Source of the DNA: an uncultured bacterium
GTDB taxonomy: Bacteria; Hydrothermota; UBA3073; NMUJ01; CBEVQO01
Assembly (NCBI GenBank): GCA_965552055.1
Contig: CBEVQO010000003.1
Location: 96,001-160,000 of the forward strand
DNA: 64,000 bases
Direction of reading: 5' to 3'
The translations under genes were made by a program, and so were the position numbers. Below the pieces are notes generated by a model, which saw only the letters and a list, made by a program, of their open reading frames with translations, made no database searches and was not told the origin of the DNA. Shown here in pieces: positions 20,306 through 43,009 of this stretch (position 1 is its first letter; every line of letters begins with the position of its first letter).

Positions 20306-20308
20306 ATT

Positions 20309-22813: not shown

Positions 22814-22818
22814 CATAA

Positions 22819-23396: not shown

Positions 23397-23402
23397 AGGT
23401 TG

Positions 23403-24605: not shown

Positions 24606-24608
24606 TAA

Positions 24609-25139
24609 ATGGAATATAAGCTCCTTTTCATATTCGTTGAGGGAGAAAATGAAATGAGATTTTTTGAAAGAATGCTTGAACCTCTATTAAAACAAAAATA
24701 TTCTTGCATTAAAATTGTTCCTTATTCCAAAAAAGAAAGAAAATGGGATTGGATAAATGATTTTATTAGATCAATCAACAAGATGAAATTTGCCAGTTAT
24801 ATTTTTGTGACAGATATAAATACTGCTCCATGCGTTGCTGCAAGAAAAGAAGAAATAAAAAATAAAATTCGAAATATCTCTGATGATAGAATAATGGTAG
24901 TGGTGAAGGAAATCGAAAGTTGGTATATGGCTGGAGTAAGCGAAAATTTTCTCAGCAAAAATAAAATAAAGGTACCTAAAAATACCGATGATTTCATGAA
25001 AGAAGATTTTGAAAAAATTATTCCTAAAAAATTTTCAAAAAGAGAATTTTTAATAGAAATGTTAAAGTATTTTTCATGTGAGAGAGCCCAAAAGAAAAAT
25101 AAATCGTTTAAATATTTTATGACAAAATTCGATTGCTGA
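24609..25139 (+). CDS. TOPRIM-like (DUF4276-like) protein
   Basis: FIFVEGENE, YIFVTDIN, EIESWYMAG; 3 nt after the ATPase. Confidence 0.65.
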   Translation: MEYKLLFIFVEGENEMRFFERMLEPLLKQKYSCIKIVPYSKKERKWDWINDFIRSINKMKFASYIFVTDINTAPCVAARKEEIKNKIRNISDDRIMVVVKEIESWYMAGVSENFLSKNKIKVPKNTDDFMKEDFEKIIPKKFSKREFLIEMLKYFSCERAQKKNKSFKYFMTKFDC

Positions 25140-26328: not shown

Positions 26329-29100
26329 ATGAACCGCTATCGCATCGAAATAAAAAGTAAATCACAGTCAGAAGCACAAATTTTAAAAGAAAATATTAAA
26401 TTACTGGGGATAGATGCAAAAGAAGTTCAGATAACTTATTGCTATTATTTATTTGGGGATATAGAAAAAAGTGATGCAGAATTCATCGCCGATAAAATTT
26501 TGAGAGACAAAGTTGATGAAGAATTTAAAATAAATGAAAAATTTCCTTTTAGCGGATTTGAGGTAGAAATCGCTTACAAACCCGCAGTAAAAGACCCCAC
26601 AGCGGAAAGCACAGAATACATATTATCGGAATTCGGATATAATGTAAAGGTTAGAAGGACAAAAAGATATTGCATAAAAGGAATAACAGAAAAGGAATTT
26701 ACAGAAATAAAAAAGAGATTGCTTTATAACGACCTTATTGAAGAAGAAGTAAAAGATGTGCAAATCTTAACTCCACCCGATTATAAATTTGAACTTATAC
26801 AAATACCACTACTTGAATGCAAAGATTTAAAGGATTTAAGCGAAAAAATGGCACTATTCTTATCGGAAAAAGAGATGAAAGTTATACAGGATTATTTCAG
26901 GGAAAAAGGCAGGAATCCCACCGATGCAGAACTCGAGACATTCGGAGCTATATGGTCGGAACATTGCTCTCACAAAACATTAAAAGCAAGGGTTAAATAT
27001 GGTGATAAGAAATTTGAAAATTTATTACGGGATACAATAATGAAGGCAACAGAAGAACTTAAAAAAGATTATATTCTTTCTGCATTTTCAGATAATGCAG
27101 GTGTTTATGAGTTTGATGAAAAATGGGGAATTGCTTTCAAAGTAGAGACACACAATCATCCTTCTGCTCTTGAGCCTTATGGAGGTGCATCAACAGGTAT
27201 CGGTGGTGTTATAAGGGATGTGCTCGGATGTGGACTCGGTGCTACACCAATTGCAAATACAGATGTATTTTGCTTTGCTCCGCCTGACATATCTTATTCT
27301 GAATTGCCTCAAGGTGTGCTCCATCCTTTGAGGATAGCAAAAGGCGTTGTAGCAGGTGTGCGTGATTATGGAAACAAAATGGGCATACCCACTGTAAATG
27401 GTGCGGTTATTTATGATAAAAGGTATATAGGAAATCCTGTTGTATATTGCGGATGTATAGGGCTTATCCCAAAGGATAAAATTAAGAAAAAGACAAACCC
27501 AGGTGATTACATCGTGCTTGTAGGGGGACTTACGGGCAAAGATGGCATACATGGTGCTACATTCTCATCAACAGGTTTAACATCTGAATCACAGGACAAA
27601 TTCATAGCAGCAGTCCAAATCGGTGACCCCATTACAGAGAAGCGTTTGCGGGATGCACTCATTGAAGCGCGCGACAAAAATCTATACACAAATATTACAG
27701 ATTGCGGAGCAGGGGGGATATGTGTTGCTGTTACAGAGATGGCAAGGGATACAGGTGCAGAAGTGCAGCTCAATAAAGTCCCATTAAAATACAAAGGATT
27801 AACTTATAGGGAAATATGGGTGTCAGAATCTCAGGAAAGAATGATATTGGGATGTCCACCTCAAAACCTCCAAAAATTGAAAGAAATATTTGAAAAATAT
27901 GGAGTAAAAGCCACGCCAATAGGCAGATTCAGGAATGACAAAAGATTAATTGTAAAATATGAGGATAAAGTTGTTGTGGATATGGATGTAGATTTTATTT
28001 TCAAAAAGCAACCAAAATTTGAGTTTGAATTTGAAGAAAGAAAAATTGAAGAAAAAGAGGTTGATTTACCGGAATTCGATGTTAAAGAAGTTTTACTAAA
28101 AGTGTTATCGGATTATAATATTCGCAGTAAGGGCTGGATAGTCCATCAGTATGACCACGAGGTTCAGGGTGGCACGGTAATAAAGCCATTGCTCGGTGAT
28201 GCAGCAGTTATAAAGCCACTTCTTAATGTAGATAAAGGAATAGCTATAGGTTGTGGCATAAATCCCTTTTATTCCCGCAATCCCTATCGTATGGCATTTT
28301 GCTGTGTAGAGGAAGCAATTCGCAATGTTGTGGCTGTGGGAGGCGACCCCCAAAAAGTTGCACTGCTCGACAATTTCAGCTGGGGCAAACCCGAAGGCGA
28401 AAAAATGCAGGCGATAATAGAGGTATGCATGGCACTTTATGATACATCAAAAGAATTTTCTGCTCCATTTTTCGCAGGAAAAGATAGTTTAAATAATGAG
28501 TTCGAAGTAGATGGCAAAAGAATATCCATTCCACATACATTGCTCATATCTGCGATAACCATTGTGCCGGATGTCAAAAAAGCAGTAGATTGTATATTTA
28601 AAAAAGAAGGAAATCCAATATATTTACTTGGGATAACGAGGGATGAATTGGGAGGCTCTGTTCTTCACAGGATACTCGGAATAGATGAAGGCGTAACTCC
28701 CTGTGTCTATCCATCGGAATCAAAGAAAATTTTCCAAAGTTTACATTGTGCCATCAAAGAAGGTTTAGTTTTATCGTGTCATGATTTATCGGATGGTGGG
28801 CTGGCAGTTGCTCTATGTGAGATGTGTATCTGTGGCTGGCATCAACATATAAAACCACTTGGTGCGAAAATAGATTTGTGGAGTATACTCGTAGATGGAA
28901 ATTTAACCTTTGAAAAAATTTTATTTTCAGAGTCACAGGGACGCTTTCTTGTAGAGGTTGATAGAGATAAAGAAAAAGAGTTCCTCGATATAATGTCAGG
29001 AGTTCCGCTTTCACGGATAGGAGTTGTAACATCAAAAGATTATGTTGAAATAGGTGAATTAAAGATTTCTCTTTCAGAATTAATAAGAAGTTATTTTTAG
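26329..29100 (+). CDS. purL: FGAM synthase subunit PurL with an N-terminal PurS-like extension
   Basis: WSEHCSHK, KVETHNHPSALEP, DGIHGA, DCGAGG, SESQERM, QYDHEVQ, HDLSDGG. Confidence 0.96.
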   Translation: MNRYRIEIKSKSQSEAQILKENIKLLGIDAKEVQITYCYYLFGDIEKSDAEFIADKILRDKVDEEFKINEKFPFSGFEVEIAYKPAVKDPTAESTEYILSEFGYNVKVRRTKRYCIKGITEKEFTEIKKRLLYNDLIEEEVKDVQILTPPDYKFELIQIPLLECKDLKDLSEKMALFLSEKEMKVIQDYFREKGRNPTDAELETFGAIWSEHCSHKTLKARVKYGDKKFENLLRDTIMKATEELKKDYILSAFSDNAGVYEFDEKWGIAFKVETHNHPSALEPYGGASTGIGGVIRDVLGCGLGATPIANTDVFCFAPPDISYSELPQGVLHPLRIAKGVVAGVRDYGNKMGIPTVNGAVIYDKRYIGNPVVYCGCIGLIPKDKIKKKTNPGDYIVLVGGLTGKDGIHGATFSSTGLTSESQDKFIAAVQIGDPITEKRLRDALIEARDKNLYTNITDCGAGGICVAVTEMARDTGAEVQLNKVPLKYKGLTYREIWVSESQERMILGCPPQNLQKLKEIFEKYGVKATPIGRFRNDKRLIVKYEDKVVVDMDVDFIFKKQPKFEFEFEERKIEEKEVDLPEFDVKEVLLKVLSDYNIRSKGWIVHQYDHEVQGGTVIKPLLGDAAVIKPLLNVDKGIAIGCGINPFYSRNPYRMAFCCVEEAIRNVVAVGGDPQKVALLDNFSWGKPEGEKMQAIIEVCMALYDTSKEFSAPFFAGKDSLNNEFEVDGKRISIPHTLLISAITIVPDVKKAVDCIFKKEGNPIYLLGITRDELGGSVLHRILGIDEGVTPCVYPSESKKIFQSLHCAIKEGLVLSCHDLSDGGLAVALCEMCICGWHQHIKPLGAKIDLWSILVDGNLTFEKILFSESQGRFLVEVDRDKEKEFLDIMSGVPLSRIGVVTSKDYVEIGELKISLSELIRSYF

Positions 29101-29420
29101 CCCCGCCTCCCTGTCCCCACCGCCCTCGTGCACACCCCTCGCTACCGGGGCACAGCCTTAACCGCACTACCGCTCTTTAAATGCCCTCCCCGTAATAAGT
29201 CAAGTTCGCAACCAAAACCCCAATCACATCAAAAACTGCACTACCGCACTCTATAACCTCTCACCATAATGAATGTAGTATCGCACCTAAAACCGGCTCC
29301 CGCTTTCATTGCCACTACCCTTAAAAATCTCCCTTTCTGCTCCCCAAATGTAGTTCAGCTCTCACCGCTCGGGGTGTTGGCTCACAACCCATATGTAATT
29401 GGCTCGCTTACGCTCGCATT
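29097..29420. repeat. Dispersed ~320-bp element, copy 2 (inverted relative to copies 1 and 3); its TTAG end overlaps the purL stop
   Basis: TTAGCCCCGCCTCCCTGTCCCCACC...CCCATATGTAATTGGCTCGCTTACGCTCGCATT. Confidence 0.9.
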
Positions 29421-29449
29421 AAAAATTTAAAAATTTAACGCTTCTAAAT

Positions 29450-29522
29450 TGTGGTTCTGCTCTCACCGCTCGAGGTATTGACTTACAGCCCATATGAAAT
29501 TTGCTCGGCTTCGCCTCGCAAT
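29450..29522. repeat. Diverged duplicate of the terminal ~75 bp of the element
   Basis: GCTCTCACCGCTCG...CCCATATG...GCTCG repeats 29348-29420. Confidence 0.75.
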
Positions 29523-29840
29523 CAAATCTTCACTTAGCCGTGATATGAGAGCCTGCTCCATTTACTGAATAACGCAGCCAAGTTATAAACACCGATGCAC
29601 CATCATATGTACCTTATCCCAAGTTCAACTCAAATTTCCCTAAAAAAATTCTTGACAAACTCATATTTTAAATTATAAATTGTAATATGAAGCCAGCCCT
29701 ATTGGAAAGGGCTGACAGTACTAAGGAGATGGGAAAGAGGCAGAAATCACATCTTATTTTGAACCACCTACCCGAAAATGAGGAAAGAATGATGAATGAA
29801 GGAAATGAGTTTATATATCCTCTCAAACTGTGAAAATATG

Positions 29841-29882
29841 AATTTCGCACATATCAAATTGTCCGAAATTTGGCTCGGCGAC
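29841..29882. repeat. Left arm of a degenerate inverted repeat bracketing the R-M/Argonaute operon
   Basis: AATTTCGC, TTGTCCGA and TTTGGCTCGGCG match, in order, the reverse complement of 38257-38393. Confidence 0.5.
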
Positions 29883-29917
29883 TTTAAAAATTTGAGAATG
29901 AAAATAATTAATGAGAA

Positions 29918-32455
29918 GTGGGCAAAAATATCATGTGGAACGAAGCAGAAACAAGAGCTAAACTAATAGATCCAAAATTGCATGAATCTGGTTGGTCAGA
30001 AGATTTAATCCAGCGTGAGTTAAAAATAACTGAAGGTAGAATTATAGATGAATATGGAAATAGAAAAGAAGGAGTAAAACCTGATTATATTCTATTTTTA
30101 GAGAGGTATTTTCCGATAGCTGTTGTAGAAGCAAAGGAAGAAGCAAAACATCATGTGGCAGGAATTCAACAAGCAAAAAGATATGCAGAAATGCTTAATG
30201 TTCCATTCGCGTACTCAACAAATGGACACAAGATCGAGGAATATGATTTCATAACCAAAAAGCAAAGAACTCTTGATAAATTTCCATCTCCGCAAGAATT
30301 ATGGAAAAGATATTCATTATGGAAGTTTAATAAACTCCTACCTTTTAATAAAGATGAAAATCCTCTTTTGTATCCGTATAAAATTGTCCAAAACAAAATT
30401 CCAAGATATTATCAGATTGCTGCAGTAAGGAATATCATAGAGGCCTTTCTTAACGGAAAAAAACGTATTTTATTGACTATGGCAACTGGAACAGGTAAAA
30501 CTTATGTTGCTTTTCAGGTAGCATGGAAACTTTACAACACTAAGAAAATCAGAAGGATTCTATATATTGCAGACAGAATAATGCTGAGGGATCAAGCTTG
30601 TAATAAATTCTTTGAACCATTTGGAGGTGCAAGAGAGGTAATAAAAGAAGGGAAAGCACCTAAAATAAGAGATATTTATTTTGCTACATATCAAACACTA
30701 TATTCGGAGAAAAACGGAAAGAGACTTTATCAAGAATATTCCCCTGATTTCTTTGATATGGTAATTATTGATGAATGCCATAGATCTGGATACGGGAGAT
30801 GGAAAGAGATTCTCGATTATTTTAAAAATGCCATTCATTTTGGTATGACTGCCACACCTAAAAGAGATGATAACATAGATACTTATGCATATTTTGGCAC
30901 ACCTGTTTATGTTTACAGCTTGGGACAAGGTATAGAAGATGGATTCCTGTCTCCTTATAAGATTCATAAAATTTACATGAACATTGATAAGAAAGGAGGT
31001 ATATCCTTAACAGATGTGGCGAGTGAGGGAGGAATTATTGAAGCACCAGAGGAAACAGAAGTTAAAGAATTCTATTCTGTTGGTGAATTTGAGAGGATTA
31101 TAACTCTACCTGATAGAACAGAAGCGATGACTAAGAAGCTTGCTGAAATACTAAAAACTTATGGTCCAACAGAGAAAACAATTGTTTTTTGTGTAACAAA
31201 AGAACATGCTTTAGATGTTGTAAAAATTTTACAAAATGAGTTAGCTTCTGAAATTGCTTCAACTGGCGTAAGGGCCGATGATTTTGTAGTAAGGATTGTT
31301 GATGAGGAACCTAACGCTATAGAGCTTGCTGAGAAAATGGCAGATTCAGAATATCAAATACCTGCCATTGCTGTAACCGTGGATTTATTAAGTACAGGTG
31401 TTGATATGCCTCCTGTAAAAAACATTGTTTTCATGAAACCCATTGCGTCTAAGGTGTTATTTAAGCAGATAATAGGTAGAGGAAGTAGAATAAGCGAGGA
31501 TGCAAACAAATTTTTCTTCCGAATTATAGATTTTGTAGATGCTACTCGTCTTTTAGATCCTTGGGATTTGCCACCTGAAGAATACATACCAGATATTCCA
31601 GAAGGACCTTTCGATTACTTTATAAAAGGAAAAGTTGTAGATAGCGAAGACGGGACACCTATTCCAAATGCAAGGATAACAGCAAAGTTGGGAGTTAATA
31701 TGGTTAAACCAGCGAGAACAAATGAAAATGGAGAGTTCATTATTGATAGTTGTCCTCATTCACCAGTAAAGGTAAAAGTTGAGGCAAAAAACTACAAACT
31801 TAGAGAAGTAAGCGTAGACCCGATCCCTTTCAAGGATAAGATTGCTGTTGTAATTGAATTGAAGAAGAAAAAACCAAAGGAAGGTAAAGTAGTTGTTAAG
31901 GGTATCAATGTTTATATCGAAGAGGAGATATATGTTGAAGTTGAAGGCAAAAAACTCAATAAAGCAAGATATATTGAATATGCTAAAGAAAATGTGAGGA
32001 AGAAAGTTCTTACATTGGATGATTTAAGGAAAGTCTGGATAAATAAAGAAAGCAGGAAGAAATTTTTAGATGATTTAAAAGCAAAGAGCATAAATCCAGA
32101 GTTAATAGCACAATTACTTGATAGACCTGATGCAGATGCTTTTGATATTATAGCTCATGTAGCTTTTGATGCCCCTATCTTAAGTAGAGATGACAGAGCC
32201 CAAGCTTTGTTGAATGAAAAACAGCAATTTATTAACTCTTTCAATGAGACCGCAAAGAAAGTTTTGCTAAATCTCATAGAAAAATACAAGATTGGTGGCA
32301 TTGAGGAAATTTCTCCCGAAGCTCTGGAATCTCCAGACATCCAGAAGATTGGCAAGTTGAAGGAGATCATAAATTCTTTTGGCGGAATAGACAATCTTAT
32401 ACACGCACTTGAGAGTATTTCTCAAGGTCTTTATGAAGCTGGAGGTGTTAGATAA
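29918..32455 (+). CDS. hsdR: Type I restriction subunit HsdR (EcoAI/EcoEI-like)
   Basis: NEAETRAKLID, PDY...VVEAK, PRYYQ, MATGTGKT, DECHR, TATP, QIIGRGSR; start may be ATG 29933. Confidence 0.93.
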   Translation: MGKNIMWNEAETRAKLIDPKLHESGWSEDLIQRELKITEGRIIDEYGNRKEGVKPDYILFLERYFPIAVVEAKEEAKHHVAGIQQAKRYAEMLNVPFAYSTNGHKIEEYDFITKKQRTLDKFPSPQELWKRYSLWKFNKLLPFNKDENPLLYPYKIVQNKIPRYYQIAAVRNIIEAFLNGKKRILLTMATGTGKTYVAFQVAWKLYNTKKIRRILYIADRIMLRDQACNKFFEPFGGAREVIKEGKAPKIRDIYFATYQTLYSEKNGKRLYQEYSPDFFDMVIIDECHRSGYGRWKEILDYFKNAIHFGMTATPKRDDNIDTYAYFGTPVYVYSLGQGIEDGFLSPYKIHKIYMNIDKKGGISLTDVASEGGIIEAPEETEVKEFYSVGEFERIITLPDRTEAMTKKLAEILKTYGPTEKTIVFCVTKEHALDVVKILQNELASEIASTGVRADDFVVRIVDEEPNAIELAEKMADSEYQIPAIAVTVDLLSTGVDMPPVKNIVFMKPIASKVLFKQIIGRGSRISEDANKFFFRIIDFVDATRLLDPWDLPPEEYIPDIPEGPFDYFIKGKVVDSEDGTPIPNARITAKLGVNMVKPARTNENGEFIIDSCPHSPVKVKVEAKNYKLREVSVDPIPFKDKIAVVIELKKKKPKEGKVVVKGINVYIEEEIYVEVEGKKLNKARYIEYAKENVRKKVLTLDDLRKVWINKESRKKFLDDLKAKSINPELIAQLLDRPDADAFDIIAHVAFDAPILSRDDRAQALLNEKQQFINSFNETAKKVLLNLIEKYKIGGIEEISPEALESPDIQKIGKLKEIINSFGGIDNLIHALESISQGLYEAGGVR

Positions 32456-33891
32456 TGGATAGACAAACATTAAGATCAAAGTTCAAGCAGACTTGCGATT
32501 TGTTGAGAAATGAGATCGCATCAGTTAATTACATAATCCAGCTGTCGTGGATGCTTTTCTTGAAACTTTATGACGATTTGGAAGATGAGAGAGAATTGAA
32601 AGCAAAGTTAAAAGGAGAAACGTATCAAAGGAACATACCTTCTCCTTACAGATGGAAAGATTGGGTCCATAAAGACTGGAGAAGTGAAGAACTCATAGAT
32701 TTTATTAACAACGAACTATTTCCTTTCCTCTCCAAATTGGACGGTGAAGGTGAGAGAGAGTTAATTGCGACCATTTTTAGCGGTAAGGAAATCCAGAATT
32801 TCCTGAAAGATGGTTACAAGTTAAGGGAAATTGCATTGTTGCTTGATGAGTTGAAGTTCAGAACAAGAGAAGACATTTATGTTATTTCTGCACTTTATGA
32901 AGAACTTTTACCTGAGATTGGGGAGATGGGTAAATATGCAGGCGAGTATTACACTCCAAGACCCGTCATAAGATTAATGGTTAAAATTGTCAATCCAAAA
33001 CTTGGTGAGATAATTTTGGATCCGTTCTTGGGCTCTGCTGGGTTCTTAATTGAAAGTTATAATCATATTCTAAGGAGCAAAGATGTTTTCACAACAAAGG
33101 AAACCAAAATATTGCATAACATGTTTTACGGACAGGAAAAGAAGGATGTCCCCTATCTTATAGGAATAATGAACCTTCTTTTGCACAATCTTCCAACATC
33201 TCACATTTACAAGGTTGATACTTTTGCTGAGGATGTAAGGAAAATTCAGGAAAAGGATAGGGTTGATGTTATTCTCACTAACCCTCCATTTGGTGGCAAG
33301 TTTGATGAGAGATTTAAAGCTAACTTTCCTGTGAAAAGCTCTGACACGGAGTTAATGGCTTTGCAGTATGTAATGAGAAAAATAAAGCAGGGCGGAAGGG
33401 TCGGAATAGTTGTTCCGGAGGGTGTTTTATCCAACACTACCGGACCTTTTGTAAGGGTTAGAAAAGAACTTCTTGAAAATTATAATGTTCATACAATTAT
33501 TTCTTTACCCAAAGGGGTTTTTACCGCGTCTGGAAAAACTCCTGTCAAAACCAATCTTCTGTTCTTTGATAAAACAAGACCAACAGAGGAAATATGGTAT
33601 TACGAGATTCAACCCCCTAAAGGCATGAAGAATTTTACCAAAACAAGACCGATGAAAGATGAAGACTGGCAGGATTGCTACGAAAAATGGAAAAATAGAG
33701 AAATAAGCGAAAACTCGTGGATTGTAAAGATTGATGAAATTGACAAGGAAACTTATGAATTAACCCCAAGAAATCCTAATAAATTGAAAAAGAAAGAATA
33801 CAGACCCGCAGGAGAGATTTTAGAAGATGTTTTGAAAGAGGAAAGGGAAGTTATGAAATTGTTTGAGGAATTAAAGGGGTTGTTAAGATGA
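32455..33891 (+). CDS. hsdM: Type I methyltransferase HsdM
   Basis: GEYYTPR, DPFLGSAGFL, TNPPFG; TAATG overlap with hsdR. Confidence 0.95.
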   Translation: MDRQTLRSKFKQTCDLLRNEIASVNYIIQLSWMLFLKLYDDLEDERELKAKLKGETYQRNIPSPYRWKDWVHKDWRSEELIDFINNELFPFLSKLDGEGERELIATIFSGKEIQNFLKDGYKLREIALLLDELKFRTREDIYVISALYEELLPEIGEMGKYAGEYYTPRPVIRLMVKIVNPKLGEIILDPFLGSAGFLIESYNHILRSKDVFTTKETKILHNMFYGQEKKDVPYLIGIMNLLLHNLPTSHIYKVDTFAEDVRKIQEKDRVDVILTNPPFGGKFDERFKANFPVKSSDTELMALQYVMRKIKQGGRVGIVVPEGVLSNTTGPFVRVRKELLENYNVHTIISLPKGVFTASGKTPVKTNLLFFDKTRPTEEIWYYEIQPPKGMKNFTKTRPMKDEDWQDCYEKWKNREISENSWIVKIDEIDKETYELTPRNPNKLKKKEYRPAGEILEDVLKEEREVMKLFEELKGLLR

Positions 33892-35207
33892 AAATCCTTG
33901 ATGATTTCAACATGAAATCCAAAAAGCCCTGGGAAGTTGAAGGAATTGAGTGGAGAGAGGTGAGGCTGGGAGAGGCGTGTATTATCAATCCCCAAAGATC
34001 AGAAGTTAAGCATTTGTTAGCTCGAAACATTGAAGTTTCTTTCATACCAATGGAATATGTAAATGATAACAAAGGAAAAATAGTAAAGTTTGATGTTCGC
34101 CCAATTAGGGAAGTGTATAAGGGATATACATATTTTAAAAATGGCGATGTATTGTTTGCCAAAATAACTCCTTGTATGGAGAATGGTAAAAGTGCTGTAG
34201 CATATAACCTGAAAAACGATATTGGTTTTGGTTCTACGGAATTCCATGTTTTAAGACCAAAAGAAAGCATATTGTCTGAGTTTATATTTTATTTTGTTAG
34301 AAGAAAAAAATTCAGAAATTTGGCCAAACTTCATTTTACAGGGACTGTTGGGCATAAAAGAGTTCCAAAAGAATTTCTAATTAATTCAAAAATCCCCATC
34401 CCATTCCGCAACGGCAAGCCAGATTTAGAGACTCAAAAGAAAATCGTTGAATATATTGAGGCAAACTTTTCAAGAATTGACAAAATTCTGGAGAAGAAAA
34501 AGAAAGAACTTGAGCAACTTGATGAACTCTGGGAAAGCGTTTTAGAGCAGGCATTCAAGCCAAAGAAAGGAGAGGAGTGGAAGGAAGTGAGATTGGAAGA
34601 AGTTGCATATATTGAAAGCGGTAACAGACCTAAAGGAGGAGTTAAAAAATACACTGATGGAATTCCTTCAATTGGTGGAGAACATTTAAGTTATGATGGA
34701 GCTTTTTCTTTTGAAAAATTAAAGTACGTTCCAGAGGATTTTTATGAGCAAAGCAACAAAGGCAAAATCAAAAAATATGATATTCTAATCGTCAAAGACG
34801 GTGCAACAACTGGAAAAACAGCTTTTGTAGATGATAATTTCCCATTTAAAAGAGCTATGGTTAATGAACATGTATTTTTATGTAGAATTTCAGAAGAGAG
34901 AATTTATCCAAAATTCGTTTTTAGATTTTTAATGAGTAGAGAAGGGCAAAGTAGAATTTTAAAAACAAAAGGCGGAACAGCGCAAGGAGGAATTAATAAA
35001 CGTTTTTCAAAATTAGTAAAAATTCCTATCCCATTCCGCAACAACCATCCAGACCTTGAAAAGCAAAAAGAAATAGCGGATTACCTTGACAGTGTTTATG
35101 AGAAAATCAAAACACTGAAAGAGAAAATCCATAAGCAGATAAACCTGCTTGAGGAGATGAAAGAAAGTATTTTGGATGAGGTGTTCAATCATGATGAGAC
35201 TAAATGA
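33888..35207 (+). CDS. hsdS: Type I specificity subunit HsdS
   Basis: Two TRDs with repeated W.EVRL.E and KIPIPFRN..PDLE.QK.I; ATGA overlap. Confidence 0.93.
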   Translation: MKILDDFNMKSKKPWEVEGIEWREVRLGEACIINPQRSEVKHLLARNIEVSFIPMEYVNDNKGKIVKFDVRPIREVYKGYTYFKNGDVLFAKITPCMENGKSAVAYNLKNDIGFGSTEFHVLRPKESILSEFIFYFVRRKKFRNLAKLHFTGTVGHKRVPKEFLINSKIPIPFRNGKPDLETQKKIVEYIEANFSRIDKILEKKKKELEQLDELWESVLEQAFKPKKGEEWKEVRLEEVAYIESGNRPKGGVKKYTDGIPSIGGEHLSYDGAFSFEKLKYVPEDFYEQSNKGKIKKYDILIVKDGATTGKTAFVDDNFPFKRAMVNEHVFLCRISEERIYPKFVFRFLMSREGQSRILKTKGGTAQGGINKRFSKLVKIPIPFRNNHPDLEKQKEIADYLDSVYEKIKTLKEKIHKQINLLEEMKESILDEVFNHDETK

Positions 35208-35940
35208 TTTTATTGAGGTAGGGGGCTTAGAGAGGAGAAGTTCTGGAGTTTTGTACATCAATATTTATCCTGTGTTAGATTACCCAAGGAAAATAAAAGT
35301 CTCAAAACTTCCTTATGATGAAAGCTTCTCACCGGGCAAGTGGAGAAAAAGAGTAGGAAATATGGTTTATTATTATGGAAGCGGTATTAAAACTCAACCT
35401 GAAGAAATAGATGTTGATAACTCTTTATTCGGCATGATCTTCAGAAAATATCTTCTTGATATGCTATCCCAAAACATAACAGAGTCATGGGAGTTAAAAG
35501 AACTGAGATCAACCTTAAGGATCGTTAAGGAGATTACCGAAAGTTATGATCATTCAGATAAAATAAAACTGCAATATGAACTTATAATAGGTGTTCATCA
35601 TTGGCAAAACACAAATTTTGGACTTACGGTTGATTTGAAGATAAATATATTTGACCTAAAAACTAACGAACGCATCTCATATCCTGAAATAGGGAATAGA
35701 TATGGAGAGAATGTGAGATATAGTATCTGGAAATCTGTTCAGGCATTTCATAAACATCTCACTCCCGAAGGCAAGAAATACGCGACAGCTATGCGAGATA
35801 AATTTAATCTTATAACAGTTCTTCTAAAAGAGGCTTTTGAGGCTTCAGAGGATGAAAAATCCTTCAACACACCAGATGGAGAAGTTAAGATTACTTTTAA
35901 GCCTCTTGAAATCGTTGAGGTGGCTAATCATGGAATATGA
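35191..35940 (+). CDS. Argonaute partner, probably the N-L1-L2 half of a split long-B pAgo (AfAgo-N-like)
   Basis: 249 aa, GAGGTG SD, overlaps hsdS and the Ago start; LYINIYPV and FGLTVDLKINI resemble pAgo N/L1 strands. Call rests mainly on position and size. Confidence 0.7.
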   Translation: MMRLNDFIEVGGLERRSSGVLYINIYPVLDYPRKIKVSKLPYDESFSPGKWRKRVGNMVYYYGSGIKTQPEEIDVDNSLFGMIFRKYLLDMLSQNITESWELKELRSTLRIVKEITESYDHSDKIKLQYELIIGVHHWQNTNFGLTVDLKINIFDLKTNERISYPEIGNRYGENVRYSIWKSVQAFHKHLTPEGKKYATAMRDKFNLITVLLKEAFEASEDEKSFNTPDGEVKITFKPLEIVEVANHGI

Positions 35941-37216
35941 AACAATTATCAGCAATGTAAATTACTACATAGGTGGAGGCACCCAAGTTCCTATATCGAA
36001 TACTGGTGAGTTAATCAGGAAATTAAGAGAATACGGTCCTTACAAGAAACCTTCACTTCGGCATAACAGGATCGCGTTTGTGTATCTTAATCGAGGAGAT
36101 TGGAGTAGTATAATTGAAAAACTAAAAACGCAAATCGCTGAAAAACTTGATGATGTTTGGCATATTAACAATACAGATTTTTCAGATTTTACTTATAATT
36201 CTTCGGATTTTGATTCCATCGAATCTCAAATTGATAAAGCTATAGATACTGGTGTTGATGGAATTATGCTTATTCTTCCAGGATATATGCCAACAGTTTA
36301 CTACAAACTTAAATCATATCTAATCAATAATGTTCCATCACAATTTATGCGATACGATATACTTTCAAGTCGAAATTTAAGATTTTACGTCGATAACCTA
36401 CTTGTTCAATTTATTTCAAAACTTGGAGGAAAACCATGGATTTTGAATATTGACCCAGAAAGAGGCTCAGACATTATAATAGGAACCGGAGCTACACGAA
36501 TTGATAATGAAAATCTATTTTGTTTCGCCATGGTTTTTAAAAAGGATGGAACTATGTTGTGGAACGAAATTTCACCAATAATCAGAAGAGACCAATATCT
36601 AACGCATTTAAAAGAAATTATTGAAAAAGCTGTTAGAGGTTTTAGAGAGAATAACCCCGATTGGCCTGTTGAGAAACTAACCTTACATGTGAGTGGAAAA
36701 AGACCTAAAATAAGAGACGGTGAAACAAAAGTTTTGGAAGATACAATTGAAGAGCTAAAAGGACAAAGTCTAATATCTCAAGATGCAAAATTTGCTATAC
36801 TTCATTTAAATGAAACACATCCTTATTGGATTATGGGTGATTCCAACAATAGGTATCATCCATATGAAGGAACAAAAGTAAAACTGAACTCTAAAAGGTA
36901 TCTACTTGCACTTTCACAACCACACCAAGAGCGATATGGATTAGAAATGGTGACCCCAATAAAACCATTGAGCGTTGAGATAGTTAGTCATAACTGGACA
37001 TCAGAGGAATTTTATCCCTTTGCTCATGAGGTCTTAGATGAGATATATTACCTGTCAAAGATGAACTGGAGAGGATTTAGAGGTAGAAACCTACCGGTTA
37101 CGGTAAATTATCCAAAATTGGTTGCAAGAATAATAGCAAATGTAAATCGTTATGGTGGTTACCAAATAAATACGGAGGGCAATCGTCCATTACGAACAAC
37201 CCCGTGGTTCCTATGA
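35930..37216 (+). CDS. ago: MID-PIWI prokaryotic Argonaute, AfAgo-like, catalytically inactive
   Basis: 428 aa from ATG 35930 (GAGGTG SD). MID pocket YYKLKSY...PSQF...[15 protein letters not shown] in place of the catalytic Asp strand; LSKMNW...LPVTVNYP; C-terminal PWFL. Confidence 0.95.
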
Positions 37217-38259
37217 TAAACGCAAAATTATTTATGAATAAGATTAACGAAATAGAAAAACGAATGGACTATGTTATTGAGAATTGGGAATCTGATAAAA
37301 GAATTACTCTTCAAGAAAAAAGGTTTGTTCTTTCTGCATACATTCATGGTTTATATAAAAACAAAAAAGTAAAAGATTTAGCAAAAAACAATCTCCATGG
37401 AATCAAAGAAAGAAGAAGATTAGATTTTGAAACTATTTTAACGGCAATAGCATCAGCATTGATTGTTGATGCGGATTTCTCAGAATATTGGAATAAATTA
37501 AAAGAGAGGATAGATAGAAGTTCTCCTACTGAGAAATCTAACTTAATAATTCAATTTTTGGTCATATTAACCCCAAATACCATCAAAAAAATCAATGATG
37601 TGCAATATATTAAAACACTGCTGAAAAGTCTAAAAAGACAAGATACTGAAAAGAAATTATTTTCCTATTGGATAGAAAAATGTCTATTTTCAGAGAAAGG
37701 GCAAATAACTATAAGCCAAAAAGATATTAAATATTTAAAAGAATATTTACTTTGGGAGCTTGTAAATTCTGAAGATGATGAACATCAAAAGGAAGAGATG
37801 AGAAAAAAATTTATTCCAGAGATGTTGGATTACAAAGTTGATAGTATTGATTGGATTGTCTTTTTAATCTATCAATTTCTTAAGAAAAACAAGATATATA
37901 TTATTACAGAAAGCGAACTGGACAGGAAACTCAAAAAAGGTATTAAATCAAGAATAAACAAAAAAGTTTGGTTTCCAGTTGGGTCATCAATATTATTTTT
38001 AATTTTAAAATTGTGGAAAGAAAACATTATAACTTTGGAGACTTTAGGACAAATTGCTTTATTAATGGTAGGGATTGCCTTACTTGTTTTTGAAGAATAC
38101 TTGCCTACTAAGAACATAAAGAAAAAGAAAATAACATCAGGATTACCAGCTACAGCTTTAATAATAGGAGTGTTACTTTGGAATTTCGAAATCTCATTAA
38201 TGCTTAATTTTATTATATCGATCATAGGAAGTATAATAATATGGTTGTTTACAGAATGA
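37213..38259 (+). CDS. Helical protein with 3-4 C-terminal TM segments; putative Ago-associated membrane effector
   Basis: ATGA overlap with the ago stop; hydrophobic [63 protein letters not shown]. Confidence 0.7.
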
Positions 38260-38393
38260 CGCCGCCGAGCCGAACTTTTCACTCGCTGTCGTTCACTACG
38301 GTGCTACCGCACTCGGACAACAAGCGAGTATGCGTTCGCTTCGCGCATCCAGACCTTTACGGCTTCACATGTTCACTAAACTTAGGCGAAATT
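38257..38393. repeat. GC-rich palindromic, attC-like element; right arm of the island boundary
   Basis: Nested stems ACTCGCT/AGCGAGT and ATGCG/CGCAT; ends in CTTAGGCGAAATT (degenerate GTTRRRY). Confidence 0.5.
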
Positions 38394-38414
38394 GCGGGAT
38401 TGCAGAGAAAAACC

Positions 38415-38441
38415 TTGACAGACCAAATTTTTGATTAAACT
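38415..38441 (+). promoter_or_regulatory. Promoter TTGACA-N15-TAAACT, ATG 6 nt downstream
   Basis: Read directly. Confidence 0.65.
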
Positions 38442-38447
38442 GATAAG

Positions 38448-39869
38448 ATGTTTGTTCTGTTTATTCTTCTTTCTTATGCGAAATTTGAAATAAAGGAAAA
38501 ATACCCTCCTGACCTTTATCTCGTTGGATATGGTGTTGCAGAAAATACGGGCTCTGATAAAGATTTAGAACATGCAAAAGCAGGGGCTATGAGAGACCTT
38601 GCGAGTCAAATACAGTGCAGGATAAAAGCAGAATACATAGAAAATATCACAAAAATAAGTAAATCGCAAAAAGAATATATATCTTCTAAATGCAAACTGA
38701 TATCCGAATTGCAACTCGAAGGTGTTAAGTTTGAAATACAGCAAACCAGAAAATTTGTATATGCATGGGCGATATTAAATCGCATAGAGGCAGGCAAAAT
38801 ATATCGCCAAAAGATTGAAAAATTAATAGAAAAAATGAAAGAAAAAATGGAAGAAGCAGATTATTTGATATCTGCAGGTGATAAAACATCGGCATTGAAA
38901 AAATTGTTCGAAATGGGTAAAATTTTTGATAGATTTGAAGAAATGTCGCTAATTTATCTTGTAATATCAGGTAACCCCCCGCCCCCCGCCCCCTTCCCCC
39001 GCTATCAAATATCCACAAAAATCCATGAATTAACTCACAAAGATTTTAAAAATTTTGAAGATGTAATAACATCACTTGCATTTCAAATAATTCAGCAGAC
39101 AGGAAATGCAAAAATTGAAGTTTTCCCTTTTGAATACGAAGATACAGATTTTGGTAGCGAATTTTCTCACTATTTACAACAAAAATTAAAATCAACCATT
39201 GCAAGATTGATAAAAAGTGGCAAAAGAAACATTTATGTATATGGGAATTACTGGGTGATGAGAGGAAAAATGAAAATAATAGCAATTTTATATGATGCGG
39301 ATAAAAAAGAAATTGCAGGAAGTGCAGAAGTAACATTTCCAGAGAATTTTTTGAGAAACATCGGGATAGATTATAAACCCAAGAATTTTGTGCAGGCGAT
39401 GATTGATAAAAAATATTTTGCACCCGAAGAAATTGTTTATGGCGGGTTAAAGGTTGAATTCTGGACAAATAAGGGCACAAAGCACTTGCTTTATAAAAAG
39501 GGGGAGATTATGAAAATTTATGTGAGGGTGAACAAACCCTGCTATCTTCAATTTATTTATCATCTTGCAAATGGCATGCGAACCCTTCTTCTTAACAATT
39601 ATTATATTGATGAAGATAAAGTAAATAAAGTTGTTGAATTGCCTTATGAATTTGAGTGTGTACCGCCTTTTGGTGTGGAAAAGTTGCAAATATTTGCATC
39701 AACAGAACCTTTGCCAGAGCCAGATGTAAAGACAGTGGAAATAGAAGGCGTTAAATATAAAGTTTTGAAAGAAGATTTAAAAGATTTTCTACTTACTCAG
39801 AGGGGTTTCATTTTGAAGAACGAGGAAAAATCAGCAGAAAGGGTGCTAACTATAACTACAATTCCTTAA
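38448..39869 (+). CDS. Exported protein with LPP20-like N-terminus and DUF4384-like C-terminus
   Basis: YLVGYG...AK..AMRDLASQI; YKKGE.MKIYVRVNKPCYL...PPFGVEKLQIFAS. Confidence 0.7.
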   Translation: MFVLFILLSYAKFEIKEKYPPDLYLVGYGVAENTGSDKDLEHAKAGAMRDLASQIQCRIKAEYIENITKISKSQKEYISSKCKLISELQLEGVKFEIQQTRKFVYAWAILNRIEAGKIYRQKIEKLIEKMKEKMEEADYLISAGDKTSALKKLFEMGKIFDRFEEMSLIYLVISGNPPPPAPFPRYQISTKIHELTHKDFKNFEDVITSLAFQIIQQTGNAKIEVFPFEYEDTDFGSEFSHYLQQKLKSTIARLIKSGKRNIYVYGNYWVMRGKMKIIAILYDADKKEIAGSAEVTFPENFLRNIGIDYKPKNFVQAMIDKKYFAPEEIVYGGLKVEFWTNKGTKHLLYKKGEIMKIYVRVNKPCYLQFIYHLANGMRTLLLNNYYIDEDKVNKVVELPYEFECVPPFGVEKLQIFASTEPLPEPDVKTVEIEGVKYKVLKEDLKDFLLTQRGFILKNEEKSAERVLTITTIP

Positions 39870-39978
39870 GAGTTAGGTGCTATCTTTCAATGTTTTCCCC
39901 CAATTCTTTTTCGATTATTTCAAAACCTTTTGGTGAGATTTTTACAGCATGAATTCTATTTCCTATATGTGATACGCA

Positions 39979-40758
39979 TCAATAGTGACCGAGGACTCCT
40001 CTTACTCTCGCTATCTTTACAAAATATTTAAAAATATAAAAGCCAGCCAAAAAGTAAAATGTGCCATTTAAAATGAGAAAAATCAAATCCATTTTATTTA
40101 ATTGCCACAATCTTAAATTGTGAATCATAATTTTTGCGATTAATTCGGTACCAAGGGAAAGAGGTAATGCTTTTAAAGCAGGTATTTTATCAACAGGAGC
40201 AGCGATAAGTCCAACAAAAACAAATTGTAGAATTTGAAAGAATGACCTTATCTGCTTGAAAACAAGAGCGAGACCACCTGTCAAAAAGCCAATTCCATAA
40301 ACACTCATTAAAGTAAAAATAAATAAAGGGAGTAAAGAAATAAGGTCAAGATGAAGCCATCTTCCCGTTGTCGCCATCATTATAAATAATACAGGTAATA
40401 TGAAGATAAAAAGCGTGAGAATAAAATCAACTATTATTTTGAATAGAGTAAGCAAATCAAAGCCGAGCGGTGTCATAAAAAGCTGTTCGAGTGTGCCAAT
40501 CTCCGCTTCTCTCATCATTTCCCACGATAATGAAGAATATGCAGAGATCGCAAAAAGCCAGAGAAGGAAGCCAACGACAATGCCATCCAGATGCTCACCA
40601 AAAGAAGGACCTTTTGCAGCAAAATGAGAATAGCCAAAAAATACTATCAGAAATAAAAGGTAAATTGTGATAAAACTCGAAACAAGATTAAATGGATAAC
40701 GCTTCCAGCCAATCCATGATTTCTTTAATACCGCTAAAAATAAGTTAAGAGCCCTCAT
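39979..40758 (-). CDS. ABC-2 type permease
   Basis: About 6 TM segments, EAEIGTLEQLFMTP. Confidence 0.88.
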   Translation of the reverse strand: MRALNLFLAVLKKSWIGWKRYPFNLVSSFITIYLLFLIVFFGYSHFAAKGPSFGEHLDGIVVGFLLWLFAISAYSSLSWEMMREAEIGTLEQLFMTPLGFDLLTLFKIIVDFILTLFIFILPVLFIMMATTGRWLHLDLISLLPLFIFTLMSVYGIGFLTGGLALVFKQIRSFFQILQFVFVGLIAAPVDKIPALKALPLSLGTELIAKIMIHNLRLWQLNKMDLIFLILNGTFYFLAGFYIFKYFVKIARVRGVLGHY

Positions 40759-41695
40759 TTTTAATCAACTTCATAAAAATTTCCTCAAAATCTGGCATCT
40801 TATCTTCGATAGATTTTATTTTTACATTAACATTTCGTAAAATGTCAAGGAAATCATAAATTCTGTGGGCATCACGGAAATCAACATCTATTTCTGTGCC
40901 TCCATCTTTCTCAATTATGTGCGAAATGAACTCTTCTTTAATCCTTTCTTTTATGGATTCGGATAATTTGCCTTCAATCTCAATTTTATATGCAGATACT
41001 TTAAAAATTGATTTAAGATTTTCGATCTTATCATCCGTTATTATTTTTCCGTTATTTATTATGATTACTCTTTCGCAGGTTGTTTCAACGAGTTTCATAT
41101 CGTGTGTGCTTACAAGGATTGTTTTGTTTTCTTCTTTTTTTAATTTTTTGATTAATTCGCGCATTTCGATTGATGCTTCTACATCGAGTCCGAGTGTTGG
41201 TTCATCGAGCAAGATGATTGGTGTTCGCTTTACGAGGCAGCATGCTACTGCGAGTTTTTGTTGCATACCGCGGGATAACTGGCGCGCCTGAGTGTTTGCT
41301 TTTTCATTTAATCCAAAGAAATCTATCAATTTTTCAATATAAGAACGATTTTGAGATGGTGATATGCCTGCAAGACCTGAGAAAAATTCGAGATTTTCTT
41401 TTACAGTCAATCTCCAGTAAATATTGCGGTTGCCTTCGAGCAGAGCGCTTATGTATTTTAATCCATTTTTAACATTTCTTCTCATATCGGTATCATAAAT
41501 ATAAATTTCACCGGAAGTTGGTTCAATTAGTCCGCAGATGCATTTAACCGTGGTGGTTTTGCCTGCACCATTCGGACCGAGTAAGCCAACAATTTCACCT
41601 TCTTTTATTGAGAAACTGATATTATTAACAGCATGTACAGGAGGTCTTCCGGGATAGATTTTTACAAGATTTTTAACTTTAATGACTTCGGTCAT
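40745..41695 (-). CDS. ABC exporter ATP-binding protein
   Basis: GPNGAGKTT, LSRGMQQK, LLDEPTLGLD. Confidence 0.93.
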   Translation of the reverse strand: MTEVIKVKNLVKIYPGRPPVHAVNNISFSIKEGEIVGLLGPNGAGKTTTVKCICGLIEPTSGEIYIYDTDMRRNVKNGLKYISALLEGNRNIYWRLTVKENLEFFSGLAGISPSQNRSYIEKLIDFFGLNEKANTQARQLSRGMQQKLAVACCLVKRTPIILLDEPTLGLDVEASIEMRELIKKLKKEENKTILVSTHDMKLVETTCERVIIINNGKIITDDKIENLKSIFKVSAYKIEIEGKLSESIKERIKEEFISHIIEKDGGTEIDVDFRDAHRIYDFLDILRNVNVKIKSIEDKMPDFEEIFMKLIKNEGS

Positions 41696-41845
41696 TATCC
41701 GCCAAAAACATTATCTCCATCTCCATAGCTTTATATTGTAATTCAACAGAGGTAAATTTCTCCCGTAACTCCGATAACCCGCCTTCCCAGTCGAACTTGA
41801 ATTTCCTTTTTTGATTTTTCCTGCCCTTATAATTTCTTTTAACAT
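41696..41845 (-). pseudogene. Remnant of a DUF2281-type antitoxin, possibly with the first codons of a PIN toxin
   Basis: KFKFDWEGGLSELREKFTSVELQ is out of frame with the promoter-proximal ATG 41845; followed by MFLAD. Confidence 0.55.
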
Positions 41846-41850
41846 ATTTA

Positions 41851-41877
41851 ATTATACTCACTTTCCTGTGGTGTCAA
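41851..41877 (-). promoter_or_regulatory. Promoter TTGACA-N15-TATAAT, ATG 5 nt downstream
   Basis: Read directly. Confidence 0.7.
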
Positions 41878-41936
41878 GTTTTTTCTTTTTTCAGCACTTT
41901 CTTTCAAAATTTTTAACAATTCTATTAGAATTTTTA

Positions 41937-42259
41937 ATGCGAGCGTAAGCGAGCCTATTACATATGGGTAGTTTGTCACACCCCGAACGGTGAAAGCATG
42001 ACCACATTTTGGATGCGTGTTTGAGGCTTTTTGGCTGATAAGGATTAGAAAGCGGAAAGCGGTAAATTGCGTGACTGCGTTTTGGAGCGGATTGAGGGAA
42101 TTTTGAGGAATGAGGTCTATGAGAGGAAGGGGGTTCGGGTTGGGAATTTGGCTTTATTATGGAGAGATGGGTTAAAGTGGCTGTGGTATGGTGCAAGTCT
42201 GTGACCTGCGTAGCGAGGGGTGTGCACATGGGAAGGTGGGGACTGGGAGGAGGGGCTAA
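41937..42259. repeat. Dispersed ~320-bp element, copy 3 (conserved ends, diverged interior); its end overlaps the doc stop
   Basis: GCGAGCGTAAGCGAGCCTATTACATATGGGT...CACCCCGAACGGTGAAAGC and TAGCGAGGGGTGTGCAC...GGTGGGGACTGGGAGGAGGGGCTAA. Confidence 0.85.
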
Positions 42260-42699
42260 TAATATTTTCTAATATGAGAACCAATCCATTTAGAAATATC
42301 TTTTAAATTCTTTTTGCCTTCTGCTACTTCGTTTAACAAATTAAAAATTTCTCCGGATTTCGCAGAAATATAATATCCGTTTTTGCGAAGAAAAATGTCT
42401 GCCAGTTCGTAAGCCATTCTTTTGTTACCATTGAGAAAAGGATGAAATCTTGCTATTCCTTCAAAAATAACCGATGCTTTCTCAGCCAATGTAGGATATA
42501 ATTCTTTGCCTTCAAAAGTTGAAAAGGGTTTTTTCAAAATAGAAATGAGGGCATCCAGATTTAAGATACCTTTATCACCACCTGATGCTTCCATTACCCT
42601 TGAATAAAGCGAAAGCGCTTCTTCTGGAGTTATCCCTAATATTTTGCGAGTAGTTTTAGCAGTTTTATATTTTTCCTTATTGACCTTTCTGCATGCCAT
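42256..42699 (-). CDS. doc: Death-on-curing (Fic/Doc) family toxin
   Basis: LYPTLAEKAS...HPFLNGNKRMA; start uncertain. Confidence 0.88.
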   Translation of the reverse strand: MACRKVNKEKYKTAKTTRKILGITPEEALSLYSRVMEASGGDKGILNLDALISILKKPFSTFEGKELYPTLAEKASVIFEGIARFHPFLNGNKRMAYELADIFLRKNGYYISAKSGEIFNLLNEVAEGKKNLKDISKWIGSHIRKYY

Positions 42700-42851
42700 A
42701 TCGTTTCTATATCTATGTTTTTCTTCTTCAATAATCTTTTAGCATATTTCAATAATTTTTCTGCGGTCTCATCGTCAATCCATTTTGTCAATATTTTGAG
42801 CTTTTCCTTATTGCTCCAATCTTTCATCTTTTCACCGATATCTTTTGCCAT
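42636..42851 (-). CDS. Putative antitoxin
   Basis: Small basic ORF overlapping doc upstream. Confidence 0.55.
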   Translation of the reverse strand: MAKDIGEKMKDWSNKEKLKILTKWIDDETAEKLLKYAKRLLKKKNIDIETIWHAERSIRKNIKLLKLLAKY

Positions 42852-43009
42852 ACATTTACGCCGAGATAAACACCTATGAGTGAGATTACATAGGGAGTTA
42901 TGAAGCGTGCAAATTCAAAGTCACCCTGCGAATAACTCATAACAATTGTAAAAAGCCATACCACGCCCACAAATAATGTAAGATAAAATTTGCGACTACG
43001 CCATTTCAT
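42824..43009 (-). CDS. Small two-TM membrane protein
   Basis: GGAGGGG SD, WRSRKFYL followed by two TM helices. Confidence 0.6.
   Translation of the reverse strand: MKWRSRKFYLTLFVGVVWLFTIVMSYSQGDFEFARFITPYVISLIGVYLGVNVWQKISVKR

Follow-up and report, generated by a model that had tools for sequence, protein, structure and literature searches.

A type I restriction-modification operon joined to a split AfAgo-like Argonaute and a candidate membrane effector in an uncultured bacterium and related vent metagenome loci

Introduction

The closest described relative of the genes discussed here is the fAfAgo system of Archaeoglobus fulgidus, an operon of three overlapping genes (AfAgo-N, AfAgo and Af1317) in which AfAgo-N and AfAgo form a heterodimer with RNA-guided DNA binding and Af1317 has been proposed as the effector (Manakova 2024, PMC10954474). 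According to the text of that report AfAgo is catalytically inactive, and the heterodimer needs no restriction-modification (R-M) protein to bind RNA guides and DNA targets; restriction genes are not mentioned in this text. We have analyzed a stretch of 64,000 nucleotides (the window) from an uncultured bacterium of the phylum Hydrothermota (GenBank assembly GCA_965552055.1, contig CBEVQO010000003.1, positions 96,001 to 160,000 of the forward strand), in which counterparts of these three genes follow the three genes of a type I R-M system in a single operon.

Other inactive prokaryotic Argonautes (pAgos) provide a functional frame for such a trio. Inactive pAgos with downstream toxic effectors are described to act by abortive infection, and BPAM combines a long-B pAgo with a membrane effector (PMC10620215). 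In sister pAgo systems, the effector position is reported to be taken by HEPN, SIR2 or TIR domains. Both BPAM and the SiAgo-Aga1-Aga2 system of Sulfolobus islandicus resemble the genes in the window in architecture, as they pair an inactive Ago sensor with a membrane effector, with abortive infection proposed or shown. SiAgo in addition has a separate N-side Ago partner (PMC10620215). The differences are that the text of the same paper describes an attached R-M operon for neither system and that the membrane protein of the window has no PADLOC match.

Type I R-M operons, for their part, are known to carry other defense genes. PrrC in EcoprrI is described as acting by abortive infection and as being coupled to a type I enzyme (PMC12707154). 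TgvAB is nested in a type I R-M cluster of Vibrio cholerae, and the whole cluster is reported to protect better than the embedded genes alone (PMC11411939). Payne 2024 describes defense genes embedded in type I R-M operons under the term 'guilt-by-embedding', and the text of this preprint, taken without its figures and supplements, does not mention a pAgo as cargo (bioRxiv 10.1101/2024.01.29.577857). As in the window, accessory and often abortive-infection genes are joined to an hsd operon in the same orientation, with variable cargo in a fixed slot. Unlike the PrrC-type arrangement, however, the cargo of the window is appended after hsdS instead of being placed between hsd genes, and it consists of a three-gene Argonaute system.

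Contacts between pAgos and R-M genes have been touched upon in at least two texts. A SLFN-pAgo is reported to share one operon with an R-M system in Poribacteria, for which the authors state 'no conserved genetic linkage' (bioRxiv 10.64898/2026.05.29.728809); that pAgo, a single-chain Schlafen fusion, is of another class, whereas the linkage seen here is conserved in 12 of 13 loci. Ryazansky 2018 names HsdS (og_11) among the DNA-binding proteins in pAgo operons in one sentence of its text. An AfAgo-type system joined to type I R-M was not found in the texts of the literature searched, whose figures and supplements may bear on the point. The first-pass annotation of the window knew of no characterization of the whole combination. 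This stands for the union with type I R-M, for which those texts yielded no paper, but not for the trio, given its 73-74% identity (for Ago) to the published fAfAgo operon (PMC10954474). What is new is thus the fixed six-gene union, together with the pointer it gives to the origin of AfAgo, while both halves are of known kinds.

Results

Organization of the six-gene operon

The operon (29918-38259, forward strand) comprises six co-directional open reading frames (ORFs) in the order hsdR, hsdM, hsdS, AgoN, Ago and membrane protein gene, without any gap between them. Every junction overlaps. The first two junctions, read directly from the letters, are TAATG at 32453-32457 (hsdR/hsdM) and ATGA at 33888-33891 (hsdM/hsdS). 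AgoN starts with an ATG at 35191 within the last 17 nt of hsdS, of which the stop codon ends at 35207; Ago starts at an ATG at 35930 and overlaps AgoN, ending at 35940, by 11 nt; and the Ago and membrane protein genes again share an ATGA (37213-37216). This layout agrees with the first-pass annotation in each of its junctions, and its identification of a type I R-M system, a split AfAgo-like Argonaute and a membrane protein is likewise upheld by Pfam, PADLOC and Protein Data Bank (PDB) comparisons.

The first half of the operon has all components of a type I R-M system. The restriction subunit is encoded by hsdR (29918-32455, forward strand; 845 aa from GTG 29918), although translation likely starts at ATG 29933, since homologs begin with MLNEAETR. 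HsdR matches the Pfam families ResIII (2.6e-44), EcoEI_R_C in its tail (2.8e-28), HSDR_N_2 and CarboxypepD_reg (1.3e-10) as well as PADLOC REase_I (4.9e-146), and its translation shows the PD...EAK nuclease, GTGKT Walker A and DECH motifs. The adjoining hsdM (32455-33891, forward strand; 478 aa) encodes the N6-adenine DNA methyltransferase subunit (Pfam N6_Mtase 1.6e-63 and HsdM_N 9.2e-15; PADLOC MTase_I 4.5e-137) with a visible NPPF motif. The specificity subunit with two target-recognition domains is encoded by hsdS (33888-35207, forward strand; 439 aa), matching Pfam Methylase_S in two stretches (1.2e-30) and PADLOC Specificity_I (5.6e-80); the gene contains an internal 72-nt direct repeat, typical of two HsdS halves. 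All three genes lack internal stops and belong to type I R-M by both families and motifs. As read from these genes, the system is intact, and methylation and restriction activity are predicted.

The CarboxypepD_reg-like insert of HsdR (aa 569-660) was considered as an Ago-specific docking domain. This idea was rejected because the insert is a trait of an HsdR subfamily that is also present in operons lacking AfAgo-type genes (G098:C11, G085:C7 and G089:C49, named here by genome and contig). HsdR homologs as such occur in 31 of the 272 genomes of the window's phylum.

The second half starts with AgoN (35191-35940, forward strand; 249 aa). It has no match to a Pfam or PADLOC family; in a phmmer search against PDB, however, AfAgo-N is found with high significance (8ok9_C / 8pvv_C, E 3.8e-111), the match covering residues 19-252 of the 254-aa ORF. 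With an identity of ~70% to this solved N-L1-L2 protein, the prediction in the first-pass annotation that the 249-aa product would fold as N-L1-L2 appears well founded. The following gene (35930-37216, forward strand; 428 aa) encodes a MID-PIWI Argonaute, the predicted ortholog of AfAgo (AF1318), as indicated by PDB entries 1w9h and 6t5t (E ~1e-220; 1w9h 1.2e-220), Pfam Piwi (1.2e-54) and PADLOC pAgo (PDLC02436, 4.3e-63); the PADLOC models pAgo and pAgo_II both match. Its identity to the A. fulgidus protein P0027 is 73-74%. The C-terminus reads PWFL, and a 12-residue PIWI motif is the same as in AfAgo, by which the PIWI domain is predicted to be catalytically inactive. The MID pocket (Y124/K128/Q138/K164) is invariant in all 18 aligned homologs and corresponds to what we take to be residues 123/127/137/163 of AfAgo. 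The alignment to AfAgo thereby bears out the Y-K-Q-K pocket, the PWFL end and the inactive PIWI that had been read from the 428-aa gene at first sight. Given identities of ~70-74% to proteins that have been solved and assayed, AgoN and Ago would be expected to form a heterodimer and to bind DNA under RNA guidance.

The last gene (37213-38259, forward strand) encodes a candidate effector of the Af1317 type, consisting of a helical N-domain (residues 1-~230) followed by three to four C-terminal membrane helices. The product counts 348 aa from ATG 37213 and 351 aa only if an upstream GTG is taken. It is 56-58% identical to the protein that follows Ago in the A. fulgidus-type locus, and it shares with Af1317 the overall architecture of a helical domain plus a membrane domain, encoded by an overlapping gene 3' of Ago. 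The AF2 model contains twelve confident helices within residues 1-225 (pLDDT >90, entirely helical) and a hydrophobic tail of low confidence. Hydrophobic segments are confined to the last ~100 residues, after position 270, with hydropathy peaks at 275-293, 311-329 and 327-346. The protein has no Pfam, PADLOC or PDB sequence match, a Foldseek search of PDB returned nothing at E <= 0.001, and matches in the ESM Atlas reach scores of 0.76 only. When the profiles of AgoN and the membrane protein were compared by hhalign with the partners of distant pAgos, a single weak match emerged (E 7e-4, probability 26%). As a side observation, the N-domain (residues 1-230, window 37213-37900) aligns to alpha/alpha-toroid proteins, including AGE epimerases, terpene cyclases and complement thioester domains, with VIA-align Z scores of 10-12.5 over ~225 residues, a range that is common for helical models.

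Taken as a whole, the last three genes are, by sequence, close orthologs of the published fAfAgo system, and the Argonaute part is already known in view of the PDB matches to AfAgo-N and AfAgo. Gene order and overlapping junctions are common to the two trios (identities of 73-74% for Ago, ~70% for AgoN and 56-58% for the membrane protein), as are the MID pocket, the PWFL end and the inactive PIWI motif. They differ in their setting. In the window AgoN is unbroken and its start overlaps the 3' end of hsdS, and the GC content of the genome (~34%) matches that of the trio, whereas the A. fulgidus trio lies alone in a low-GC island in which the AgoN N-terminus has been replaced and an hsdS remnant is absent. 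Because of the overlap between AgoN and the end of hsdS, the trio of the window constitutes the 3' half of a type I R-M operon.

Recurrence of the six-gene package

Related loci were retrieved with an alignment of 18 Ago homologs, giving one genome locus and 17 metagenome loci, while a query with a single protein retrieved none of these 18. The six proteins of the window were then compared with all 18 loci (L numbers below) by tblastn. Five of them (L002, L010, L016, L018, L019) begin at or inside the Ago genes and are uninformative upstream. In 12 of the 13 informative loci hsdS is located directly 5' of AgoN. A survey of homolog neighborhoods had been set by the first-pass annotation as a test of its proposal, and the objection that hsd linkage does not recur fails since hsdS directly precedes AgoN in these 12 loci. 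A complete hsdR-hsdM-hsdS set is present in eight loci (L003, L004, L006, L008, L011, L012, L013, L014); L017 starts within hsdR, and L005, L007 and L015 start within hsdS. In the window and its 12 linked relatives alike, the trio follows hsdS at the 3' end of the operon in the same orientation, and the membrane protein gene is found in each of the 16 loci that reach beyond the Ago stop codon.

The conservation extends to the overlaps, for which gene starts were chosen by homology. The hsdS/AgoN overlap measures 17 nt in eight of nine cassettes and 14 nt in the ninth, the AgoN/Ago overlap 11 nt in all nine, and the overlap between Ago and the membrane protein gene 4 nt in eight of eight. The surroundings vary: the neighbors PurL and a DUF4384 lipoprotein in the window occur in none of the 18 loci, which are flanked by genes for an integrase, a DNA methylase, a HAD hydrolase, DruA-NurA-HerA, ankyrin repeats and a UvrD-like helicase.

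Across the eight complete cassettes, HsdR (79-95% identity) and HsdM (78-96%) are conserved to a similar degree, while AgoN (58-88%), Ago (60-93%) and the membrane protein (43-91%) range more widely. Ago and the membrane protein evolve faster than HsdR, with Ago branches ~3-4 times as long as HsdR branches. The recognition domains of HsdS vary freely (36-93%), as specificity swapping predicts. The distance matrices of HsdR and Ago are correlated (Mantel r 0.92, p ~0.01, in the same eight cassettes), a signal that comes mostly from one deep split between L012/L013 and the rest. Both trees recover this split with full support; the HsdR tree is otherwise unresolved.

Sister cassettes carry extra genes between hsdM and hsdS: DUF6731 plus a 156- or 166-aa gene in L004 (4102-5542) and L011 (5938-7387), a 551- or 554-aa gene in L006 (5602-7257) and L008 (6362-8026), and a 192-aa gene in L014 (7499-8077). 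They have no PADLOC match and are, by position, candidate accessory defense genes. Two further observations concern the L012/L013 pair. In L013 (2930-5005), HsdM and a single-domain HsdS are fused in one 691-aa ORF. In L012, a perfect 99-nt inverted repeat (1-99 and 8487-8585) brackets the whole cassette, and L013 has a related upstream copy; we have not adopted these repeats as transposon ends, as one arm coincides with the contig end, so that the repeat may either be genuine and have interrupted the assembly or be an artefact.

An AfAgo-type protein was found in none of 40 relatives of the window's genome, and the viral and plasmid collections searched contained no close relative on a plasmid or virus.

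Elements flanking the operon

A ~53-bp segment just 5' of hsdR (29860-29912, forward strand) is kept between cassettes and is likely a promoter or 5' leader. By blastn of the flanks, the corresponding segments of L003, L008 and L014 are 90-94% identical to it, and that of L004 85%. Directly after the last stop codon, a GC-rich element (38260-38393, forward strand) likely represents the 3' end or terminator region. It is common to L003, L006, L007, L008, L011 and L014 according to blastn and direct reading, with ~70-140 bp kept together with the cassette, and one further weak copy is present in the window's genome (G000). Rfam gave no match within window positions 28500-43000. The 3' element partly resembles a dispersed repeat in the intergenic region before hsdR (29300-29540), where two 75-nt copies stand in tandem; this repeat has 42 matches across the contigs of the genome.

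Origin of the Archaeoglobus fulgidus island

The sole exception among the 13 informative loci is L009, the A. fulgidus-type island, which has the trio without hsd genes. Its AgoN is in two parts, as described for strain DSM 4304, and its core has 30% GC between flanks of 45-55% GC. Homology to the cassettes starts inside the AgoN N-terminus, after ~200 bp of AT-rich DNA, and a remnant of hsdS is absent. In the Ago tree, L009 falls inside the main clade, separated from the L012 clade with 100/100 support and nested further with support of 80-87. R-M-linked cassettes stand on both sides of it under midpoint rooting; the root is not established because the outgroups are too distant, with branches of ~10 on which outgroup rooting failed. 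The cassettes have 33-35% GC, equal to the window (34%) and its flanks. Since it is nested inside the R-M-linked clade, the A. fulgidus copy looks like a truncated derivative of an R-M-linked cassette, presumably derived from a low-GC lineage that appears bacterial by gene content.

Other Argonaute loci and nested cargo in the phylum

A scan for Piwi (PF02171) in 272 genomes of the phylum gave ten matches, nine of them above the cut-off including the window's genome. The context was read for seven of the nine other loci; G095 lies on a short contig and G087 is below the cut-off. Three of the seven (G098, G108, G094) lie within or beside a type I hsd operon and share its orientation. In G098 (L046, G098:C145 199-9000), the order is hsdM, a 244-aa gene, a 433-aa Piwi gene, a 128-aa gene, hsdS, a DarT-Macro fusion and hsdR. 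A single PADLOC PprPIWI model is matched by both the 244-aa protein (N-terminal part, 2-240) and the 433-aa protein (C-terminal part, 264-666), so that we regard the two as a second, unrelated split pAgo; the assignment of the 244-aa N-part depends on this PADLOC match, the single-sequence AF2 model having a pLDDT of 38. In G108, a split pAgo with Aga_HEPN (E 1e-83) precedes an overlapping hsdS, at which the contig ends, and in G094 a 722-aa long pAgo is placed 35 nt before hsdM-hsdS-hsdR.

The four remaining loci are organized differently. G166 and G086 both combine a pAgo with a SIR2 partner (BPAS-type); the former adjoins a type IIG-like methylase on the opposite strand, and near the latter no R-M gene was found. 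The same holds for the neighborhoods of the Piwi loci of G092 and G089. Outside the phylum, no hsd genes were found near a split pAgo on a Haloplanus plasmid. Conversely, an hsdRMS operon with 46% identity to that of the window (G098:C11) carries other genes after hsdS, namely a 409-aa gene overlapping hsdS, a 110-aa gene and an EVE-domain gene.

The window itself contains further defense-like genes. In a type III R-M-like cluster (14898-22816, reverse strand), three genes are placed between that for an 835-aa methylase (PADLOC MTase_III, E 0) and that for a 680-aa ResIII helicase (REase_III, 4e-29), namely those for a 773-aa AAA_13 ATPase (PDC-S06 / LmuB-like, 6e-82), a 182-aa protein without family and a HATPase_c_4 protein. 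Here, too, an R-M operon has cargo nested in it. A 401-aa ATPase and its 176-aa partner (23400-25139, forward strand) match PADLOC HEC-01A (2e-53) and HEC-01B (1e-8), a defense pair first found embedded in Hma systems. Approximately 4 kb downstream of the cassette lies a small Fic/DOC-family gene (42256-42699, reverse strand), adjoined by a copy of the dispersed repeat (41929-42012).

Discussion

In this study, we propose that the six-gene operon probably holds two stacked defense layers that are co-expressed and biochemically independent. We consider this the best reading since the nesting of defense genes in type I R-M operons is a known habit. In the first layer, HsdR, HsdM and HsdS would methylate host sites and cut unmethylated incoming DNA. 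In the second layer, as suggested by published work on AfAgo and comparable systems, invader DNA would be recognized with small RNA guides by the heterodimer of AgoN and the catalytically dead Ago, which would then switch on the downstream membrane protein through the helical N-domain of the latter; once activated, this protein would damage the membrane and cause abortive infection when restriction has been evaded. Cargo would be accommodated in a slot behind hsdS, with the R-M operon serving as its carrier, as type I R-M operons do for other accessory defense genes. Such stacking requires no direct biochemical link between the layers, the two halves being inherited and expressed together. The independence of the layers is indicated by L009, where the trio occurs without hsd genes, and by G098:C11, where hsdRMS carries other cargo in the slot after hsdS.

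Several observations weigh against two independent layers. The hsdS/AgoN junction is never broken by insertions, although these do occur between hsdM and hsdS, and both the unbroken junction and the co-divergence could also be explained by a tighter functional coupling. A scan for consensus promoters and terminators remained at chance level (31 found, 33.9 expected). Frame breaks are present in AgoN of L007 (612-1357) and L009 (948-1642) and in Ago of L010 (819-2116), and L017 has several, in hsdR, hsdS and AgoN; these broken copies may reflect decay or assembly error. In addition, the 12 linked loci do not count as 12 independent events: they form one Ago cluster (60-93% identical) with a common repeat-like 3' element, so that their hosts may be related.

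The first of these points leads to a rival account in which the R-M and Ago halves are functionally coupled, either as a PrrC- or PARIS-like guardian that fires upon inhibition of the type I enzyme or by an Ago that is fed by HsdR restriction, where breaks, unwinding and degradation would lay bare single-stranded targets or precursors of guides and thereby load or trigger the Ago pair. A guard of the R-M complex and an Ago fed by HsdR products had also been suggested in the first-pass annotation. We regard such coupling as unlikely, even though the hsdS/AgoN overlap has been kept in nine of nine full cassettes despite genes inserted between hsdM and hsdS, HsdR and Ago distances co-diverge, and three of the seven other Piwi loci of the phylum (G098, G108, G094) are in or next to type I hsd operons. 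Precedents exist as well: PrrC is reported to be linked to its enzyme in this way (PMC12707154), and the whole V. cholerae R-M cluster is described as protective beyond its embedded genes (PMC11411939). Yet the trio persists alone in A. fulgidus (L009; see also PMC10954474), the published heterodimer is reported to bind guides and targets without an R-M protein (PMC10954474), and no hsd genes were seen around the split pAgo of the Haloplanus plasmid. Operons without AfAgo-type genes also have the HsdR insert domain, and nesting is an established pattern, with the related operon G098:C11 bearing other cargo in the same slot. PrrC-like guardians lie between hsd genes, a position that the trio of the window does not occupy although it shares their orientation; the distant split pAgo of G098, by contrast, does lie between hsdM and hsdS. 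It is doubtful, then, that the six genes form one wired immune circuit in which the Ago/membrane module reads the outcome of restriction and kills the cell when restriction is beaten. The input of such a circuit might tentatively be sought in the failure or inhibition of HsdR or in single-stranded DNA and fragments generated by it.

The relatedness of the linked loci raises the question of whether their linkage has any selective meaning at all. An ancestral island could have placed the trio after hsdS by chance, to be inherited within a narrow group of vent bacteria. The proteins of the linked loci indeed all fall into a single tight cluster (34 Ago and 39 membrane protein homologs, all at least 44-52% identical) and have the 3' repeat-like element in common, and the absence of an AfAgo-type protein from the 40 relatives and from the viral and plasmid collections searched fits such a history. 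We nevertheless judge an accident improbable, as the flanking genes differ between loci, the overlaps are exact across an Ago divergence down to ~60% identity, and unrelated pAgo types also reside in type I hsd operons of this phylum. A role outside defense, in which the Ago module would serve R-M or DNA metabolism (control of self-restriction, resolution of DNA intermediates) with the membrane protein as its anchor, could be read from the shared operon and from the fact that the text of PMC10954474 gives AfAgo-type systems no experimental phenotype. It strikes us as very improbable: homologous inactive pAgos with toxic effectors are described to act by abortive infection (PMC10620215), sister systems have HEPN, SIR2 or TIR domains at the effector position, and the evolutionary rate of Ago and the membrane protein, ~3-4 times that of HsdR, is what one would expect of genes in an arms race.

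In summary, a six-gene package that recurs in many contigs of vent metagenomes extends the known cargo of type I R-M operons to Argonaute systems. It also points to the likely source lineage of AfAgo, namely vent bacteria of ~34% GC with an intact AgoN, in which the trio normally forms the 3' end of a type I R-M operon. The operon of the window offers an intact six-gene construct with which the cooperation between Argonaute-based abortive infection and restriction can be tested. If the six genes did prove to be one wired circuit, AfAgo, which has been studied for twenty years, would be the torn-off half of a six-gene machine.

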